Virus record (IMG/VR): IMGVR_UViG_3300012078_000003
Length of the DNA stretch: 56,966 bases
Direction: 5' to 3' (one strand)
DNA from: a virus
In this document: positions 3,096 to 39,364 of the stretch, one piece after another
Numbering within the stretch: position 1 is the first letter of the stretch
How the letters are laid out: each line of letters opens with the position of its first letter
The notes under the pieces: model-generated
What the model saw: only the letters and a program-made list of their open reading frames with translations
What the model was told of the DNA's origin: nothing
Database searches by the model: none
Made by a program: the position numbers and the translations under genes

Positions 3096-3132
3096 CCTCC
3101 TAAACTCCCCGGCTTATTCGGGGGTGGATTTT
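3096..3132 (-). repeat. 37-nt hairpin + SD cassette (family i), identical to 2385-2421
   Basis: Here its 5' part encodes the C-terminal ..STPE stop of 3114-3449. Confidence 0.85.
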
Positions 3133-3449
3133 CCATTAAAATATTCATCGTTCCATTTACCGACAATCTCATTTGCAGGAAGTTCAGACCAGTGTGTATA
3201 ATAACCCGGCCAATTACTATCCAGCGGAGTGCCACAATAGGGTGATTCCGATACTGGCAATTCCCACCACAATACATCCCCATAATCCTCATGCCATTCG
3301 TCTAATGTGCGTAAGGTTTCTATTTTCTTTTGCCGTTCCAGGGCGGTAATTGCAAGTTCTAAATACTTTATAGCCTCTTTTTCATCTTCAAATTGCGACA
3401 AGTCATTTATCCAATTCTTGAAATAACCTATTGCTTGTTTACTATTCAT
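3114..3449 (-). CDS. Hypothetical protein (111 aa)
   Basis: Track ORF. Its start overlaps the upstream stop by 8 nt. Confidence 0.7.
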   Translation of the reverse strand: MNSKQAIGYFKNWINDLSQFEDEKEAIKYLELAITALERQKKIETLRTLDEWHEDYGDVLWWELPVSESPYCGTPLDSNWPGYYTHWSELPANEIVGKWNDEYFNGKSTPE

Positions 3450-3669
3450 TTTGCCCTCCTAAATCCATAGGCTCCTGCCCTATCTTATTAATCGCCACCC
3501 TGTAGCCGAACGGACGCAGTATACGCTCCGCTGTCTCCATGTTTGGTGAAATACCACCATTGCATATTCGACTGATTGTGGAGGCCGCCACGCCTGTCTG
3601 ACGCGATATTTCACGTATGGTGAGGCCGGTGGTTATTTGGGCTTGTAGGAATGCTTGTAGGGTGTTCAT
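3442..3669 (-). CDS. HTH DNA-binding protein (Cro/XRE-like)
   Basis: LTIREISRQTGVAASTISRICNG helix-turn-helix. ATGA overlap with the upstream gene. Confidence 0.75.
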   Translation of the reverse strand: MNTLQAFLQAQITTGLTIREISRQTGVAASTISRICNGGISPNMETAERILRPFGYRVAINKIGQEPMDLGGQNE

Positions 3670-3869
3670 TCGTTCTTCACTCCTTGCGCTATGGATTTGG
3701 CTTTATCTAATTTTCGTTCCTCTCGGATTTCCTTTAGCGCTTCAATTTCATAATCCCTTGCCGTTCTGATGCAGGATTGGCAATAATACCCATGATATGG
3801 GGTAGAAGCGCCATACACGGTCAAATTTCCGCAAAATTCACACGGCGCTATTTCTTTTTCACCATTCAC
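3666..3869 (-). CDS. Small zinc-ribbon protein
   Basis: CEFCGN...CQSC. GTG start. Confidence 0.55.
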   Translation of the reverse strand: MNGEKEIAPCEFCGNLTVYGASTPYHGYYCQSCIRTARDYEIEALKEIREERKLDKAKSIAQGVKNE

Positions 3870-4139: not shown

Positions 4140-4330
4140 GATTTAGTTTTGAGGGCTGATTCTTGACACTTCACATCTGAATTCCTGCTTCAACGATCGT
4201 TGCTGGCTGGCCCAGTCTTACATAATCTCCACAGGCGTAAAATCCGGCGTGTCCCGCCGTACTCAATTTATGATTACGCGCTTAACAGGCGCAAGCCCTC
4301 ATTTAGAATATTGGTGGCAGCATTAATATC
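4140..4330 (-). ncRNA. Candidate omega/reRNA of TnpB (3' end of tnpB plus right end)
   Basis: Position rule for TnpB guide RNAs. Local helices GGCG/CGCC and palindrome CAACGATCGTTG downstream of the stop. Confidence 0.4.
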
Positions 4331-5392
4331 CCTATCGTGAATTGTATCACATTCTGGACATTGCCATTTCCTCACCGCCAAGTCTTTAGTACCTTTGTTC
4401 TGATAGCCGCAACGGGAGCAAGTCTGGCTTGATGGGAAGAATTTGTCTACCCTGATAAGTGCCTTGTGCTGCCATTCACACTTGTACGAAAGCTGGCGGA
4501 TAAACTCATTCCACGATGCATCATTGATAGACTTTGCAAGCTTATGGTTCTTTATCATATTTTTCACTCGTAAATCTTCAATGCAGATAATGTCATAATC
4601 CTTGACAAATTGGGTTGATAGTTTATGTAGGGAATCGTTCCGCTGGTTTGCCACGCGCTCATACAGCTGCGCAACCTTGATCCTTGCCTTATTTCTGTTT
4701 TTGCTACCCTTTGATTTTCGGGATAGCGCACGTTGGGCTTTGGCAAGCTTCTTTTCTGATTGTCGTAAAAACTGGTGGTTTTGAAATTTCTGTCCATCGG
4801 AAGTAATTGCAAAATCCTTTAAGCCTAAATCAATTCCAATTGTCGCCCCAGTGGATTCATATTGTAAAATCTCGACATCGGTACAGCAAATAGAAACAAA
4901 ATATTTGCCGCTTGGGTTTTGGGATATGGTTGCAGAAAGAATGCGTCCATTGACCTGTCTTGAAATTGCGCATTTTGTTTCCCCTATCTTTGGAAGTTTA
5001 ATCTTTCCATCTTTTAAGTAAATGCTATTTTTAACATTTCTGGTTTTATATGATTTTTTAGAAGTCTTTTTTGATTTAAATTTCGGAAATCCAGGCTTTA
5101 AAGATTTTGATTTTACCCTATTGAAGAAGTTTAAAAAAGATTGATCGAGGTTTTTTAGGGATTGCGTCAGTGGAAAACAATCAACTTCCTTCAGCCACGG
5201 CAATTCATTTTTTAGTTGAGTAAGCATTGCATCCGTTTCATAGAAGCGAATAGTTTTTCCATTTTCCTTATATGCATTAATCCTAGTGGCGAGAAAATAA
5301 TTATAAACAAATCGACAACAACCAAATGTTTTGTGAACCAAGACTTCCTGTTCCTTGCTTGGATATATGCGGAACTTATATGTCTTTTCCAT
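4274..5392 (-). CDS. tnpB: TnpB RNA-guided nuclease (IS605 OrfB family)
   Basis: N-terminal [11 protein letters not shown]. RuvC D-E-D motifs [21 protein letters not shown] and HDRDINAA. Zn ribbon CSRCG...CPEC. Confidence 0.92.
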
Positions 5393-5454
5393 CAAAATTC
5401 CTTTCACATGGGAAGGGGTAGGGGCCTATCCTCATTACCCCTCTTTCAATCATT

Positions 5455-5471
5455 CCCCGGTTATGCCGGGG
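5455..5471 (-). repeat. Third family-ii-like hairpin (CCCCGG-5-CCGGGG) abutting the IS left end
   Basis: Follows the stop of 5485-5667. Its SD-like AAAGAGG is followed by the IS rather than by a gene. Confidence 0.5.
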
Positions 5472-5484
5472 TTCGGTGTGTGGT

Positions 5485-5667
5485 TCATCTTGCGATTTCA
5501 TTCCAACTATCGCCCATGCGATTCATTGCGGATTTCGCGCCGCGCTCCGTTGCGTATACCTTGTTAGTATGACGCATTCCTCCGGCTGAAACTTTTAGCC
5601 TAAAGCCATCCGGCGCTTGCGCTATTGAAGCGGTCGCGCCATAAAAATCCTTGTAGTATTTTTTCAT
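5485..5667 (-). CDS. Hypothetical protein (60 aa)
   Basis: GGGAGGG SD 9 nt before ATG 5667. Confidence 0.65.
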   Translation of the reverse strand: MKKYYKDFYGATASIAQAPDGFRLKVSAGGMRHTNKVYATERGAKSAMNRMGDSWNEIAR

Positions 5668-5691
5668 ATCTCCATACCCTCCCATTTTCTA

Positions 5692-5841
5692 TCAATCCAC
5701 AAATGTATTCTTGTTGAAATCAAATATCCCGTAATAGCAACCGTTCTTATGAATCGTTCCTATTCCCAATGAAAGAGATACAATGCGGAATATGCCGCGT
5801 TCACCCAATGCCTTTAATGCGCTGATAAGTTTTTCTTTCAT
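5692..5841 (-). CDS. Hypothetical protein (49 aa)
   Basis: AGGAGGG SD 7 nt before the ATG. Translated by hand: MKEKLISALKALGERG... Confidence 0.55.
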   Translation of the reverse strand: MKEKLISALKALGERGIFRIVSLSLGIGTIHKNGCYYGIFDFNKNTFVD

Positions 5842-5898
5842 GGCGCGACCCTCCTATTTTCTGTCCCAGCAACCGGCGCTGCTGGGTGGGCATTGTGA

Positions 5899-6105
5899 CT
5901 AATTAGTTGTGCCGATCTTTTCCAGACAAAAGGCTAAAGGACAGTTGTTCTTGTGTTCCATTCCTATCAATGCCACTCTTGATGGATACCCTCTCATGTA
6001 GAAAACTTGATCCACTATGTATGCGTGGCCGCAATGCTCGACGATATCTCCAGAAACTATATGCCCGTTTTTCCCCATTACTTTCTTTGCTACAGCGTAA
6101 TCCAT
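5899..6105 (-). CDS. Hypothetical protein (68 aa), first gene of the leftward operon
   Basis: GGGAGGG SD 7 nt before ATG 6105. Confidence 0.65.
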   Translation of the reverse strand: MDYAVAKKVMGKNGHIVSGDIVEHCGHAYIVDQVFYMRGYPSRVALIGMEHKNNCPLAFCLEKIGTTN

Positions 6106-6642: not shown

Positions 6643-6712
6643 AATACATAATATTAAAAAGCCAAAAACCACGATAACGAGCGGTTTTTAGTTTTGCGTC
6701 GTACCGGCATAT

Positions 6713-6761
6713 ACAGACTCTGACTCTGTTTGTCTGGGTTCAAATCCTAGTCGGGCAACCA
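6713..6761 (+). other. attP core: 3' portion (anticodon arm to CCA) of a tRNA-Gln(CUG)-like gene, not a complete tRNA
   Basis: ACAGA-CTCTGAC-TCTGT anticodon arm, CTGGG-TTCAAAT-CCTAG T-arm, TCGGGCA-A-CCA. No D-arm or 5' acceptor strand upstream. Confidence 0.75.
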
Positions 6762-6764
6762 GTA

Positions 6765-6805
6765 AAATCCCTTTAACTATGCGGTTTTAGGGATTTTTCT
6801 TTTTT
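6765..6805 (+). terminator. Hairpin + T-run after the tRNA fragment
   Basis: AAATCCCT / AGGGATTT followed by TTTTCTTTTTT. Confidence 0.65.
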
Positions 6806-6853: not shown

Positions 6854-8074
6854 TTAATATTTCAACTTAGAAACACTCGCCTTTTTATCTTCAATATCTA
6901 CTGTATCATATATCTGAGTCGTGGATATACTCTTATGTCTGAGGAGTTCTCGAATATCATCCAGGTCGACTCCGCTTCGCCTTAGATATGTGGCAAACGT
7001 ATGGCGCATTTTATGCGGTGTCAGTCTTGGGATTAAGTCAGGATCAATCTTCTCCCCTATCTTCTTGCTTTCCTCCTCCGCCCTCTCGGTAATTTTACAA
7101 TTCAAATCATCAAAGAATTTATAATATAGTTCATCGTAGGATGCATGTGTGTGATGCTCGTAAATAACATGCGTTTCCCCTAAATCGTCCTTGAATTTTA
7201 CAGGTCGGCTCATAACATATACGCCCGTCTTTGGTATTTTATCCAGCAGCGGATCAAGGGCGGTGTTGTATGTGACTATGCTTTCATCTTCTGATTTGGT
7301 CCCGGGTGTGATCTCGTGTTTAAATACTCCAGGCTTTTCTTCTTCCTCAACCAGTGTTAAGGATCGCCGAATGTGAAACGTATGATTTTCTTTGTCACGG
7401 TCAACCCACATAAGCCCAAAGCCCTCACCTGGACGCAGGCCAGAGTAAAGATACAAAGCGATAAACGGTCCGTATTCATGCTCACTTAAATATTTTACAA
7501 TGGCGGACATATGATTGCGCTTAAATACGGATGGAGCCTTTGGTGATTTCGGCGGAAGTTCAATTCCAACAACTGGATTCTGCTTACATAATCGGTTTTC
7601 GATGGCAGTTTTGAAGATTCCCTCAAGCGCCCATAATAGTTTTTCTGCGGATGACCGGGACAGTGGCTTTCCTTCTGGATATTTTCTATTAGGTTTTGTT
7701 TTGGAATCTCTAAAAAGTTTTTTGATGTGTGCCGGCCGTACATCGTTGAGTTTCAATTTACCGATTTCTGGATTAATATGACGCGAAATATACATCTTAT
7801 AATCTTTGTACGCGCCGGCCGATTTTCCTGGTTCTGGTTTTTTGTATAACTCAACCCAATGCTCGGCCCATTGCGTGACGGTTTTGACTTTCTCGATTGT
7901 AACCTTATGTTCCGAGGCCAACCACTCCTTATGCGCCTTTCTACAGGCCGTAGGCGACGACGCGGTAAATGACTTGCGAACGGTTACGCCGTCGATTTCG
8001 TCCACTGTGCGCAGCCGGTAACTGCCGCTTGGAAGTTTCGTTATAGTTCCCTCGCCGTTTGCTTTGCGTCCCAT
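6854..8074 (-). CDS. int: Tyrosine integrase
   Basis: C-terminal HKMRHTFATYL...LLRHKSISTTQIYD (R-H-R-Y catalytic pattern). Adjacent to attP. Confidence 0.93.
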   Translation of the reverse strand: MGRKANGEGTITKLPSGSYRLRTVDEIDGVTVRKSFTASSPTACRKAHKEWLASEHKVTIEKVKTVTQWAEHWVELYKKPEPGKSAGAYKDYKMYISRHINPEIGKLKLNDVRPAHIKKLFRDSKTKPNRKYPEGKPLSRSSAEKLLWALEGIFKTAIENRLCKQNPVVGIELPPKSPKAPSVFKRNHMSAIVKYLSEHEYGPFIALYLYSGLRPGEGFGLMWVDRDKENHTFHIRRSLTLVEEEEKPGVFKHEITPGTKSEDESIVTYNTALDPLLDKIPKTGVYVMSRPVKFKDDLGETHVIYEHHTHASYDELYYKFFDDLNCKITERAEEESKKIGEKIDPDLIPRLTPHKMRHTFATYLRRSGVDLDDIRELLRHKSISTTQIYDTVDIEDKKASVSKLKY

Positions 8075-9330: not shown

Positions 9331-9454
9331 ATTGTACCCTAATGTGGAGATTCTGTCAATAAACAAATTTCCAAAAATGGCAATTATCTTTCAAAAAACC
9401 CTTGACAATATCCATATATGGAAGTAGAATAAGAGTAAGATATCCAAATATGGA
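9331..9454. promoter_or_regulatory. Lysis-lysogeny switch: divergent promoters with three TCCAnAnATGG operators
   Basis: Leftward TTGACA-17-TACAAT (9359-9331). Rightward TTGACA-17-TAGAAT (9402-9430). Operators at 9370-9381, 9411-9422 (perfect TCCATATATGGA) and 9443-9454. Confidence 0.75.
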
Positions 9455-22911: not shown

Positions 22912-23187
22912 ATGAGCGAGATATTGAAAAGCAAAAATGTCATTACCAGAAAACCGCATGATTGCTTTGGATGCAATAAAACATATCCTCCTACCACAAG
23001 CATGAAAAGGCAATCCATAAAAGATGGGAAAACCGTATTTACTTCATATCTATGCGAGACTTGCCAAGAAGTCGTTGCCAGAACATTTGAATATGGGGAT
23101 GAGTTTGGTGAGGGTGAGGTACGCAACGGCGATCCGGAATATTGGGATGGGGTAAATCAAGAGTTGCGGGAGGGCGATGTAGATTGA
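22912..23187 (+). CDS. Hypothetical Cys-containing protein
   Basis: GAGGTGATG SD region. Track ORF. Confidence 0.65.
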   Translation: MSEILKSKNVITRKPHDCFGCNKTYPPTTSMKRQSIKDGKTVFTSYLCETCQEVVARTFEYGDEFGEGEVRNGDPEYWDGVNQELREGDVD

Positions 23188-23630
23188 CAGCGAATAAAAG
23201 CCTGAAAGACCGATTTGAGCAATATGTATATTTAGGGCTGGCTATTGAGAGATTAGAGCATAAGATAAACGAAGCGTATGGATCTCACTTCCGATGTAGC
23301 GTGCAATCATCTAATGGCCCAGGATATACCCTCATAAACGAATCAATAGGAGGATATGACAATATTGGGCACGCTCAAGAGCGAATACAGGAAATGCGAT
23401 CAGAGGTTTTTGAGTTTGGAACAGAAATGGATCAAGTGGAAAAGATTATTGATTCAATACCCGACCTAAGAACCAGACAAATAATGAGTTTAAGATATTT
23501 GGATGGGAAGCGCTGGCGGGATGTAGTGGCATCGTTGGGACACCGAGAATCGGAAAGCAGCGTAAAGATGGTTGCGAAAAGATTTTTTGAAACTTGTGAC
23601 GAATGTGACCAATGTGACGAAACGGCATAG
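23184..23630 (+). CDS. Sigma-70 region-4-like late transcription regulator
   Basis: IDSIPDLRTRQIMSLRYLDGKRWRDVVASLG...SSVKMVAKRFFE. TTG 23184 after GGGAGGG. Last gene before the packaging region. Confidence 0.65.
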   Translation: MTANKSLKDRFEQYVYLGLAIERLEHKINEAYGSHFRCSVQSSNGPGYTLINESIGGYDNIGHAQERIQEMRSEVFEFGTEMDQVEKIIDSIPDLRTRQIMSLRYLDGKRWRDVVASLGHRESESSVKMVAKRFFETCDECDQCDETA

Positions 23631-23639
23631 TAAAATTAA

Positions 23640-24895
23640 AGTGTGGAAATGCGTTGATAGCCAAATATCGGCTATATCAGCACCCCACGATGCGGAACAG
23701 GGCAGAAACAGTTAACGACACTGCCCGGATGGCCGCATAGCCGATAACGCTACGAGCGTTCAAATATACACGATCCAGCAAATACCCGGCGTGTCCGGGC
23801 GGTAATTGCCGGATGGAAAGGGGGATGGACGGCATGAAGCGATGTTGTAAGCCTTTTAAAAACATGAATGAAAATATGATGTGATCTGCCTGCGGCGGCG
23901 CCATGAGTGTGCCATGCCTTGCGGCCACAAACGAGTGTGAGCCGCATAAAACCATTCGATGCCATGAGAGCAACGGAGGGCACAAAAATGAAGTAGTTAT
24001 TTTAAGCGCTTAAAAGAATATACTACAAGGCCGCTGGACAAAAGTGCGGCGGCCTATCTATCGGCATAAGGATTTATGCAGGTTCAACTCCTGCAATGCT
24101 GAAACCTTCCTTTCAATCCCTCCCTATCCCGCTGGCTACGGCTGGCGGGAACGAATGCTAAATATCAACGCACAGTATGGCTGTGCCAACAACCAAGCCA
24201 AAAACATAATGCCAGCAAATGCCTTTCTCGAATAATCTTGACAGGGGCAAAACAATCCCTGACGGCTACGGTTTCGAGATTGAGAATAGCTGAGAGGAAA
24301 TTATAATAATTAATCGCGGGGATTTGCATTGTGTTCCCCGGCTTGATTGTTGATATGATTTAATCAGCGCGGAGCTGTTTAGATACCAGGGGATTATGTA
24401 GTTGTCGGTTCCACGAAGCCCACAAATCGGTTGAACCGTCCGCGAAGGCGTATACTACCGCACGGCGTACAGGAAACAGAGTGCTATAGGTTCCCTTGCA
24501 ATAGGGTTTTCGACACGCTATCGGAAAGACAAATATTGCATGGCAGCCGGGAAATAGCGGCAAGCTAGAATGGTAAAACTTTCATTCAACCCTGTTATAC
24601 AGGCTGAATGTATCGGGGAAGTTTCATCTTGATAGCCGGTAACGGGTGCGGATGTTTATAACCGATTGATCTTACCCATGGGAGCCGCGCCTAGCTAACG
24701 CGGTTAATATTCAATAAGCCGCTACACCGGCAGCGGGATATAAAAGGGCGGTAATGAAGATGCCGCAATCCCGCCCACGTAATTCCTGCCTGAGTTGGCA
24801 GTGAGGTGGGCGGGGTGAGTGGCGAAATCAAATGAGGCCGCCGTCCTTTTCAGGCAATCACCGACCGCCCACACAATCAACAGCCTTGCGCTGAT
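23640..24895 (+). ncRNA. Candidate large structured ncRNA region (possibly two RNAs)
   Basis: No SD-preceded ORF for 1.25 kb. Dense nested helices. C(UACG)G tetraloop hairpin and G.U pairs valid only on the + strand. Confidence 0.45.
24280..24307 (+). promoter_or_regulatory. SigmaA-like promoter inside the noncoding region
   Basis: TTGAGA-16 nt-TATAAT. Confidence 0.35.
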
Positions 24896-24909
24896 AGGGG
24901 GATAAGTTT

Positions 24910-25134
24910 ATGAGTAATCAACTTACATATGAGCAGCTTTTGGATATGGAAGGCCAAATCGTTAGGGTTGTCGATAGGGAATGTGACTATCACAGCCAGA
25001 TATGCGAAGTCTCATTATCGAATGATGATGCGGGAGATTTGTGGCTTACACTTTCGAATGGCGGATATGAATTTGCATATGATCCCGCTGGAAAATGTGT
25101 AGATGGAGAATTTGAAGCCTATTTGGTTGAATAA
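24910..25134 (+). CDS. Hypothetical acidic protein (74 aa)
   Basis: GGGGGA SD. Track ORF. Confidence 0.7.
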   Translation: MSNQLTYEQLLDMEGQIVRVVDRECDYHSQICEVSLSNDDAGDLWLTLSNGGYEFAYDPAGKCVDGEFEAYLVE

Positions 25135-25298
25135 CCCGGCCTCCGCAGGCCGAACAAATTGAATAATTACGTCTCGCATTCGCGGGGCGTTTTTATATCC
25201 CAAAATTCGGGGATAGAGTAGCGCACTCGAAAAACGGAAAGCCTTATCCGTCCTCCCCGGATTAAATTTTAAGGCGTTACGGAAAGGCGGTAATATGA

Positions 25299-26036
25299 GT
25301 GAAACATATTGCTAGTTGCAGTTTTGGCGAAGATAGCATGGCTACAGTGATCACAGCAAGAAGACAAAATGAGCCACTTGACGAAGTTGTTTACTGTGAG
25401 GTTATGTTTGATAAGGGTATCAGCGGGGAAATCCCGGAGCATCGAGAGTTTATATATAGCACAGCAATTCCAAGACTGAAATCATGGGGAATAAAAACTA
25501 CCGTCCTACAATCAACATGGACATATATCGACCATTTTAATTTTGTAATCACGAGAGGCGAGAGAAAAGGAAAGCTACGCTCATTTGCGCTCTGTGGAAT
25601 CTGCTCTGTGAAGCGAGATTGTAAATTACCTCCTATCGCGCAATACCAAAAATCCTTGTCAGATGATGTTGTCCAGTATATCGGAATTTGCAATGACGAA
25701 GAAGATCGGCTGTTAAGCATGGATGGGATATCACTGCTCGAAAAGTATGGGATATCCAAGTCGATGACCGGCGATATATGCAAGTCGGAGGGAATGAGAT
25801 CGCCCATTTATGAGTTCACAAACCGTGGGGGTTGCTGGTTTTGCCCGAACGCCAAGGAAAAGGAGCTGCGTCACCTATACGATCATCACCCTGATTTATG
25901 GGTGAAAATGCTTGAATTACAGGCATTGCCAAACAAGGCAACGGATAAATTCAATCGCACTATGAGATTTGACGAAATAGACGCAAATTTCCGGTTTGAT
26001 GATATGCAAATGAATTTATGCGAACAAGGCGCATAG
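25299..26036 (+). CDS. PAPS-reductase/PP-loop-like protein (IbrA-like)
   Basis: N-terminal SCSFGEDS (degenerate SGGxDS). C-terminal GGCWFCPN. Typical terminase-proximal phage gene. Confidence 0.7.
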   Translation: MKHIASCSFGEDSMATVITARRQNEPLDEVVYCEVMFDKGISGEIPEHREFIYSTAIPRLKSWGIKTTVLQSTWTYIDHFNFVITRGERKGKLRSFALCGICSVKRDCKLPPIAQYQKSLSDDVVQYIGICNDEEDRLLSMDGISLLEKYGISKSMTGDICKSEGMRSPIYEFTNRGGCWFCPNAKEKELRHLYDHHPDLWVKMLELQALPNKATDKFNRTMRFDEIDANFRFDDMQMNLCEQGA

Positions 26037-26117
26037 CATATCTTATAACGCCCCTTGCGGGCTATCAAACAAGCACCTAAAAGGGTGCTTTTATTATATC
26101 AAAATTGAGGTGAGGTG

Positions 26118-26495
26118 ATGGCGCTAACTGAAAAGCAGAAGCGATTTATTGATTACTATGTCGAGACTGGCAACCAAACCGAAGCGGCGCGTCTTGCTGG
26201 CTATAAGCAACCTCATGTCCAAGGCGCTCAAAACTTAGAAAAACTTAGAGATTACATAGAGGAACGTAATGAAGTCTTAGAGAGCCAAAGAATCGCCAAT
26301 ATGACAGAGGTGAAAGAGTTTTGGAGTGCTATACTTCGCAGTGAGGATGAAAATGTCCGCGACAGGCTGAAAGCCTCTGAATATATTGCCAAGACCAACG
26401 CGGCGTTTGTTGATAAGGTTGAGCATGGTGGCGATATCGAATTTAATATAAAAATAGATTACGGTGATGGTGATGAGGAAGACGATACAATTTAA
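26118..26495 (+). CDS. terS: Terminase small subunit
   Basis: LTEKQKRFIDYYVETGNQTEAARLAGY. Confidence 0.85.
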   Translation: MALTEKQKRFIDYYVETGNQTEAARLAGYKQPHVQGAQNLEKLRDYIEERNEVLESQRIANMTEVKEFWSAILRSEDENVRDRLKASEYIAKTNAAFVDKVEHGGDIEFNIKIDYGDGDEEDDTI

Positions 26496-39239: not shown

Positions 39240-39364
39240 AGTATAAGCGATAATCAAGGCGTTGTCAAGTGATTGCTGTACGTTATAAATGTATCAGTAA
39301 AAAATATTTAGAGAAATGTTGATAAAACACTTGACAACATTAAGCGATTGCTGTATACTATAAT
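39240..39364. promoter_or_regulatory. Divergent promoter/operator region of the embedded cassette
   Basis: Leftward TTGACA-17-TATACT (39268-39240). Rightward TTGTCA-16-TATAAA (39262-39289) and TTGACA-17-TATACT (39331-39359). Each rightward spacer carries GATTGCTGTA. Confidence 0.65.

Follow-up and report, generated by a model that had tools for sequence, protein, structure and literature searches.

The tRNA region of phage T4 carries two extra stable RNAs, and lambdoid phages harbour "moron" units, in which a small gene with its own promoter and terminator is inserted between conserved modules. Hairpins that act as 5' stabilisers or RNase III sites occur in mRNAs of Gram-positive phages, the SP82 stabiliser being an example. 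The large structured RNAs ROOL and GOLLD are often found in prophages and near tRNAs (PMC5737381). Here we describe a gene-free interval in a stretch of 56,966 nt of viral DNA (IMG/VR record IMGVR_UViG_3300012078_000003, hereafter the window). The interval, to which we refer as the gap or the island, covers positions 23631-24909 (+ strand, 1.28 kb) and lies between a sigma-like late regulator gene and a 74-aa gene, upstream of the packaging genes. A first-pass annotation of the same DNA had seen in it one or two large structured non-coding RNAs (ncRNAs) of roughly 0.6 kb each, possibly related to ROOL or GOLLD. The island is non-coding and mosaic, its four hairpin anchors are conserved and stable, relatives carry tRNAs in the same slot, and it belongs to no RNA family known to Rfam. 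With somewhat more confidence than doubt, we read it as a transcribed and remodelled non-coding tRNA/small-RNA accessory island, in which anchor hairpins and exchangeable cassettes are combined with the remnant of a tRNA, the decayed start of a gene and an acquired promoter.

Relatives of the island and its lack of coding capacity

Relatives were recovered by protein look-ups and by exact DNA patterns taken from conserved pieces. This gave twelve distinct related loci, namely L064 (= L001), L065, L066, L067, L068, L071 (almost identical to L073), L072, L074, L079, L080, L085 and L087. Nearly all of them come from one Joint Genome Institute (JGI) metagenome project and its re-assemblies, with two other samples in addition. 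The proteins flanking the gap are rare, with three and two clusters, respectively, among 5.8 billion proteins. A scan of 185,579 species genomes found no related locus, and blastn with 11-base words against GenBank phages returned nothing similar to the gap. The terminase has relatives at 63-70% in prophages of Christensenellales, Ruminococcus, Oscillospiraceae, Lachnospiraceae and other Clostridia, and these more distant prophages have no DNA in common with the gap.

The boundaries of the gap are set by the PHROG-36-type sigma-like regulator gene (23142-23630) and by the next ATG preceded by a Shine-Dalgarno sequence (SD), which is the start of the 74-aa gene at 24910. In two public contigs that are identical to the window (L062 and L063), separate gene calls leave the corresponding interval, 4721-6001, empty. 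The three open reading frames (ORFs) of the gap (23677-23985 on the minus strand, 24044-24235 on the + strand and 24360-24563 on the minus strand) match no Pfam or PHROG family, and tblastn with all gap frames against all related loci gave no protein similarity beyond the shared DNA. Relative to the minus-strand ORF, the substitutions that distinguish the window from L079 between 23739 and 23906 number 7, 7 and 4 at the three codon positions, and the frame is interrupted by an indel of 2 nt. Module A, a segment described below (24389-24561), differs from its counterpart in L065 by indels of 1 nt and 2 nt. Because the gene calls are empty, the ORFs are without families, the substitutions are not codon-periodic and the indels are not multiples of three, the gap is non-coding, with one micro-ORF as a small exception. 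The first-pass annotation had held that no credible coding sequence lies between 23630 and 24910, and this is borne out by gene calls, family searches and the substitution and indel pattern alike; neither a conserved ORF nor codon-periodic substitution nor a family match was found in the gap. The micro-ORF had been overlooked. It consists of 16 codons (MKRCCKPFKNMNENMM, 23834-23884) behind a strong SD (GGGGGA, 23820-23825), the whole feature spanning 23817-23884 on the + strand. L079 keeps it with one Cys-to-Ser and one synonymous change, and L072 has a 77-aa gene whose SD and start region are similar. The micro-ORF probably represents what is left of a gene start.

The island is a mosaic between four anchors

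When the relatives are mapped onto the gap, about 13% of it is common to at least four of them, about 47% to one to three, and about 40% is unique. The common fraction is made up of four short anchors, E1 (23690-23738), H2 (24104-24152), E2 (24357-24388) and E3 (24762-24909). The stretch 23739-23906 is common only to L079 and partly to L072, while 24059-24103 is common only to L079. No relative maps to 23907-24058, 24170-24353 and 24689-24861 (~40% of the gap). The first of these window-unique segments (23907-24058, + strand) folds stably and includes the hairpin AGGCCGC/GCGGCCT at 24028-24055; at the same position relative to the tRNA-like minihelix described below, L079 has a different long hairpin. 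Module A (24389-24561, + strand) is shared by L065 only, with 91% identity, and the comparison reveals one compensatory and four one-sided pair-preserving changes, G.U pairs being present. Module B (24538-24688, + strand) is shared by L067 and L074 only, with 92-94% identity and no informative substitutions. A 22-mer scan of viral contigs for further homologues of module A gave no match, and a distant homology between module A and the region behind E2 in L079 was rejected, the alignment being unconvincing.

The spacing of the anchors is as variable as the filling. In L068, E1 directly adjoins E2, where the window has ~620 nt between them, and in L079 1.1 kb separates E2 from E3. L080 cleanly lacks an ORF cassette that L079 and L067 have, and overall the pieces of the gap are present or absent independently of one another among the relatives. 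Many public contigs break inside the island, as is typical of assemblies when co-existing variants share anchors and differ between them. A mosaic with such variable spacing cannot be reconciled with one or two large RNAs whose architecture is conserved. The length of ORF-free runs in 16 distant prophages (at least 2.5 kb upstream of TerL) was confounded by spurious ORFs and is not used here.

Several relatives carry a further element, "module C", of ~130-190 nt, which ends in the E2 hairpin and reads GGAGUAAUGC, nested hairpins, AAGCAU and GGGAGCCA. It is found in L065 (4195-4345), L085 (1700-1835) and, on the reverse complement, in L067 (770-955), L079 (2660-2850) and L080 (1925-2116). It is without an Rfam family and shows several compensatory stem changes between relatives; the window retains only its E2 end.

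Folding of the gap and comparison with known RNA families

Folding was analysed in 150-nt tiles on both strands, with z-scores calculated against dinucleotide shuffles. On the + strand, z is -2.75 for the E1 region, -2.79 for 23901-24050, which largely overlaps the first window-unique segment, -3.10 for 24690-24839 and -3.85 for 24740-24889. The region 24020-24160 reaches -4.66 on the + strand compared to -1.24 on the minus strand. Taken as single elements, the E3 hairpin and the T-arm minihelix have + strand z-scores of -5.9 and -3.2, respectively. Other tiles are no better than shuffles, among them 23751-23900 (+0.64), 24153-24302 (-1.6) and 24300-24395 (-1.6), as well as those of module A (24388-24537, +0.74) and module B (24538-24687, -0.62). 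Thus, although every helix named in the first-pass annotation was found in its place, its description of the gap as helix-dense is right for roughly half of the DNA, which beats the shuffles, and wrong for the other half, which folds like shuffled sequence. In the three-tier hairpin at 23666-23746 the outer tier, TATCGGCT/AGCCGATA, is window-specific. All four GGGCGG/CCGCCC segments, for which alternative pairings had been proposed, are present; the inner pair (24770/24806) is conserved, while the outer pair (24746/24865) is again window-specific.

All 4227 Rfam families were compared by cmscan, at the gathering score over the whole window and at E<=10 with permissive filters on both strands of 23500-25300. 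At gathering thresholds no family matches within the gap. ROOL (RF03087, a model of ~580 nt with six multistem junctions as well as three pseudoknots) and GOLLD (RF01998) match neither in the window at the gathering score nor in 23500-25300 at E<=10, and the models of OLE, raiA and HEARO give no match in 23500-25300 at E<=10. The suggestion of a ROOL- or GOLLD-like RNA, for which this comparison had been put forward as the check, finds no support in it. The window also encodes a TnpB/IS605 OrfB-type gene (HTH_OrfB_IS605, OrfB_IS605, Cas12f1-like TNB) at 4274-5407 on the minus strand, left of the integrase gene and far from the gap; no Rfam match for an omega-RNA/HEARO at the gathering score is reported with it. 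L065 likewise has a TnpB-type gene, near its regulator gene.

The comparison leaves the case of one or two new RNAs of ~0.6 kb that would be akin to ROOL and GOLLD in function and not in sequence. Both RNAs are at home in prophages and near tRNAs (PMC5737381), a setting that fits. The window indeed contains integrase, terminase and portal genes, and relatives have tRNAs in the equivalent island, however this context is not diagnostic of ROOL or GOLLD. Several stable + strand helices, the pair-preserving changes in module A and a promoter-like site at 24280, which divides the gap into two halves of ~0.6 kb, can be read in the same direction. The architecture, in contrast, is not shared, as only 13% of the gap recurs in at least four relatives and 40% is unique, the anchors are adjacent in L068 or 1.1 kb apart in L079 with unrelated filling between them, tRNAs or ORFs occupy the slots of relatives, half of the gap folds like shuffled sequence, and no covariance model matches at E<=10. 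A conserved large architecture with long-range covarying helices was not found among the relatives. The sole candidate, a helix of 17 nt between 24363-24379 and 24879-24895 that would close a 500-nt domain, connects E2 and E3 and was rejected, because in L074 the E2 stem is changed and E3 is not; its two arms are local hairpins. We consider large RNAs of this kind quite unlikely.

Conserved hairpin anchors

The first anchor, E1 (23690-23738, + strand), forms two tiers, ATGCGG-AACA-GGGCAG, a 15-nt loop and CTGCCC-GGATGG-CCGCAT. It is present in 10/10 relatives that cover its position, and 48/49 positions are invariant in 11 variants with unrelated flanks. This exceeds the conservation of the neighbouring coding genes, which differ by 6-17% (the 74-aa gene has 83-94% identity). 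As nothing varies in E1, it offers no covariation. When 886 kb of more distant loci were searched with a covariance model of E1, no diverged copy emerged, and its two sub-threshold matches both lie inside coding regions. Four "outgroup" matches to the E1 loop (L075, L076, L082 and L088) are on unrelated, mostly eukaryote-like contigs and, from a rough 20-mer estimate, were treated as chance.

E1 is conserved as sequence including its loop, and it always comes first in the island, immediately behind the upstream gene. This invariance is best fitted by an explanation at the level of DNA, according to which the conserved pieces would be sites bound by the late regulator or by the small terminase, a signal for replication or packaging, hairpins of single-stranded DNA, or linkers for recombination. 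In line with it, the island adjoins the packaging genes and exchange of modules at the anchors is clear. However, the arms of E1 are split by asymmetric internal loops (4 vs 6 nt), which is atypical for a duplex operator bound by a dimer, and in H2 and E3 the strand asymmetry and the retained G.U pairs indicate folding of RNA or of a single-stranded + strand rather than duplex recognition. A packaging signal is also not what the terminase leads one to expect, as it is of the headful type (SPP1-portal, Terminase_3), for which the pac site normally lies within or beside terS. For the island as a whole, we regard DNA-level elements as unlikely.

The second anchor, H2 (24104-24152, + strand), is present in seven relatives. 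A tract rich in pyrimidines leads into its hairpin (24128-24149), which has 9 bp, a UACG loop and tandem U.G/G.U pairs. The first-pass annotation had pointed out that these wobbles form on the + strand, and they are indeed kept in 7/7 relatives, together with one compensatory change from G-C to A-U. Two other roles were considered for H2. As a solitary minus-strand mimic of a CRISPR repeat it was rejected, since two C.A mismatches occur in every relative, a tail similar to ATTGAAAG is unconserved and the CRISPR-DR47 score is 12.8 bits. Pairing of its CU-rich tract with the SD of the 74-aa gene, as an anti-SD, is possible over nine pairs in the window; judged by eye, it is not kept in L067 and L071 and is thus unsupported.

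In the third anchor, E2 (24357-24388, + strand, 6-8 relatives), the lower stem AUUUAA/UUAGAU is conserved and the upper part is variable. Upper stems are CAGC/GCUG, CGGC/GCUG or CGGGC/GCUCG, and the loops GCGGA, GUGAA, GAAA, AUAG and UACG are GNRA-like or UNCG. The fourth anchor begins with the E3 hairpin (24762-24825, + strand), GCCGC-AAU-CCCGCCC and GGGCGGG-GUGAG-UGGCG enclosing an apical hairpin, and is found in the window, L067, L068 and L074. Each of these four loci has a different apical hairpin, all of them stable (z -3.3 to -5.9), and the lower helices show one compensatory change and several G.U changes. The tail of E3 (24867-24909, + strand) consists of CACACAATCAACA, the hairpin CAGC-CTTGC-GCTG (24881-24893) and the SD AGGGGGA (24896-24902). 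It occurs in the window plus four relatives, and among the relatives it precedes three unrelated small genes. Both the strand asymmetry and the G.U pairs found in H2, E3 and module A favour an RNA folded from the + strand. Covariation is confined to short local hairpins; for the interval as a whole there is essentially no significant covariation.

A tRNA slot with a minihelix

A tRNA-like acceptor/T-arm minihelix is located at 24061-24102 on the + strand. A 7-bp stem (TCGGCAT/ATGCTGA, with G.U as third pair) is followed by a bulge of 9 nt and by a T stem of 6 bp that carries the T loop TTCAACT; the architecture is identical in L079. Within 24077-24102, GCAGG-TTCAACT-CCTGC stacks directly on the 3' strand of the 7-bp stem, as the T arm of a tRNA does. 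The T-loop-like hairpin described at 24077-24095 in the first reading is hence real and part of this larger element. The best Rfam match in the gap at E<=10, that of the tRNA model to 23991-24102, scores 18.7 bits and stays below the cut-off of 29 bits. The alignment contains an insertion of 52 nt and mismatches at two acceptor pairs, and the upstream portion that the model uses as D-arm and acceptor is not conserved in L079. No full tRNA cloverleaf reaches threshold in the gap with RF00005 or ARAGORN, and ARAGORN at default thresholds finds neither a tRNA nor a tmRNA there. A tmRNA or permuted tmRNA is called only at the 80% ARAGORN threshold, with an implausible 5' domain, and E1 as a minus-strand tRNA only in a low-threshold ARAGORN call; both were rejected.

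The strict T-arm motif has only two copies in the 57-kb window (114 kb, both strands), at 24078 and at 6734. The copy at 6734 belongs to a tRNA 3' fragment at 6700-6765 (+ strand) beside the tyrosine-integrase gene (6854-8074, minus strand). This fragment comprises an anticodon arm, the T arm CTGGG-TTCAAAT-CCTAG, the acceptor strand and CCA, and ARAGORN calls no full tRNA in it; the attachment site and left prophage end are probably here.

In the relatives, the slots between the anchors are occupied in different ways. L071 and L073 have a tRNA-Gly(UCC) 5 nt downstream of H2 (ARAGORN; Rfam 62.6 bits), and L067 and L079 an SD-preceded 60-aa ORF after H2. L079 further contains a tRNA-Ser(UGA), a near-threshold tRNA of 28.8 bits and at least five strict T-arm motifs, all on the + strand; this region, ~3120-3770 of the reverse complement, lies within its ORF-free E2-E3 stretch of 1.1 kb, and some of the T-arm hairpins are ~30-60 nt apart. 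Two distant prophages (L090 and L099) have a tRNA immediately upstream of their terminase genes. From this comparison of sequences we conclude that the island is a tRNA/small-RNA slot, with its tRNA content here reduced to the minihelix. A type II hammerhead (45.9 bits) is found in L006, a more distant related phage contig, at 3754-3817 (+ strand), ~1.2 kb upstream of a PAPS-reductase-like gene; its location in a comparable region shows that elements for RNA processing are in use upstream of these genes.

Remnants of genes and tRNAs could also mean that the gap is mostly decayed DNA, where recombination has left small pseudogenes and dead tRNA genes, and in which only the ribosome-binding region of the next gene is functional. 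In favour of this, the SD and 16-codon ORF look like the beginning of a real gene in L072, other loci have intact small ORFs (L067, L079) or tRNAs (L071, L079) at places where the window has none, the tRNA model reaches just 18.7 bits, 40% of the gap is unique and half lacks unusual structure. Decay does not account for the four anchors, which are far better conserved than their coding neighbours (E1 48/49 compared to 83-94% for the 74-aa gene), nor for the retention of tandem wobble pairs. The frames of the gap have no protein similarity to related loci beyond shared DNA, and the T-arm hairpins of L079 cannot be decayed whole tRNA genes, because a spacing of ~30-60 nt is too dense. A gap of mostly dead DNA is therefore improbable in our view.

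A more far-reaching proposal, which we consider very unlikely, would make the anchors and T-arm elements a modular phage RNA island of a new kind, in which host RNase P/Z would cut a precursor at the minihelices into small stable RNAs. The minihelix would then be a CCA-tailed tRNA mimic or decoy, acting in translation takeover or against tRNA-targeting defences, and E1 would be the site of a dedicated phage factor. The 7-bp acceptor stem of the minihelix, with its G.U third pair and the A that follows, resembles the alanine-charging identity set.

A putative promoter and leader of the 74-aa gene

The segment 24153-24353 (+ strand) is mostly window-specific, L079 sharing only 24153-24169. It contains the promoter-like sequence TTGAGA-16-TATAAT (24280-24307), followed by a hairpin CGGGGA/TCCCCG (24317-24341). 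The site agrees with 11/12 consensus positions, and the window has eight such sites compared to 1.7 expected in shuffles. Because of this enrichment, the site picked out in the first pass, which is among the eight best of the window, is probably a real sigma-70-like promoter. The islands of the relatives have no such site. Four other 11/12 sites of the window form two close divergent or near-overlapping pairs, at 9331-9430 and 39240-39359.

A transcript predicted to start at ~24314 would have the CGGGGA/UCCCCG hairpin near its 5' end and would continue through E2, modules A and B, E3 and the 74-aa gene (24910-25134) to an intrinsic terminator with a T run (25169-25190). Gene and terminator (24910-25200, + strand) thus follow the gap directly, and the terminator is conserved in relatives. 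The 3' half of the gap (~24314-24909) is probably a structured leader of ~600 nt for the 74-aa gene. The terminator scan found none upstream of the 24280-24307 site on the + strand within the gap, and therefore the 5' half is expected to be covered by read-through from the regulator gene. The gene downstream of the island differs between relatives.

Outside the gap, an int-alpA RNA motif (RF02996, 51.7 bits), the one Rfam family matched nearby, lies at 25206-25274 (+ strand), just upstream of a PAPS-reductase-like gene (25299-26036). In the close relatives L068, L071 and L074 this motif precedes a ParB-like or other gene, and it is missing in 15 more distant loci with a PAPS-reductase homologue. 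It has been discussed as a possible element of single-stranded DNA, which would suit the DNA-level reading of the anchors. Further downstream, at 26039-26122 (+ strand), a block conserved to 93-98% contains an intrinsic terminator (26071-26090) directly before the small terminase gene. The packaging genes are thus behind at least two terminators.

Discussion

The account that we favour can be put as follows. The window would derive from a temperate phage of gut-type Clostridia, in which the island lies behind the late regulator gene and ahead of the packaging genes. The four conserved + strand RNA hairpin elements E1, H2, E2 and E3 would form its frame, and between these anchors unrelated cassettes would be swapped within the phage population, including tRNA genes, T-arm hairpins, small protein genes and orphan structured pieces. 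In the phage of the window, the tRNA content would have shrunk to the acceptor/T-arm minihelix and a gene start would have decayed to the micro-ORF, while the acquired sigma-70-type promoter (24280-24307) would turn the 3' half into a long leader, the unit ending at 25169-25190. Hairpins and tRNA-like element may serve as signals for processing, stability or translation control, with RNase P/Z or RNase III entry sites and 5' stabilisers as candidates. They would not be domains of one large RNA.

Several observations weigh against this account. We infer the transcription of the + strand, the processing of the island and the roles of hairpins and tRNA-like element in processing, stability or translation. 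The promoter, being in a segment unique to this phage, cannot account for the island of the relatives. About half of the gap is neither conserved nor excessively stable and may have no function. The conservation of E1 at the level of sequence fits a site of protein or DNA recognition at least as well as an RNA stability element. Finally, covariation is sparse: H2, E3 and module A have one compensatory pair each, among relatives that are very similar and come essentially from one project plus two other samples.

In its organisation the island is closest to phage tRNA islands and moron-type units. With phage tRNA islands it has in common a same-strand non-coding block of variable content, tRNA genes in some members and possible RNase P/Z sites. 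It differs in that the window is without an intact tRNA and only the acceptor/T-arm minihelix of 12-13 bp is left. The four non-tRNA anchor hairpins and the closely spaced T-arm-only hairpins of relatives are features that are undescribed for classical tRNA islands. As in a moron unit, a predicted sigma-70-like promoter, the 74-aa gene and a predicted intrinsic terminator follow in this order, and the downstream gene varies. However, the leader is unusually long (~600 nt) and structured, and the relatives lack the promoter. Similar to 5' stabilisers and RNase III hairpins, E3 is long and G+C-rich, has internal loops and a replaceable apex but no U tract, and lies tens of nt upstream of an SD. 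There is no sequence relationship, and the likeness is one of predicted folds. With ROOL and GOLLD the island shares the setting in a Bacillota prophage beside tRNA genes or their remnants and a similar non-coding length scale, in contrast to which it has no covariance-model match (E<=10) and no conserved multi-junction core, and half of it is not unusually structured. The int-alpA RNA is a neighbouring conserved structured element of the same accessory region, also in close relatives, but it lies outside the gap, downstream of the 74-aa gene, and is unrelated to E1-E3 in sequence and structure.

A helix-rich, gene-free prophage interval beside tRNA remnants is a tempting lead to a new RNA of the ROOL/GOLLD class, and our analysis removes it. 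What remains is more modest: a few conserved hairpin motifs that have not been described before, and an evident case of a hypervariable tRNA/small-RNA slot, placed upstream of the packaging genes in phages of gut-type Clostridia. The favoured account does not explain the invariant 49-nt E1 and the dense T-arm hairpins of L079. If the anchors are processing or control signals and the T-arm-only hairpins are selected for themselves, this would be a new phage use of tRNA-derived structure.

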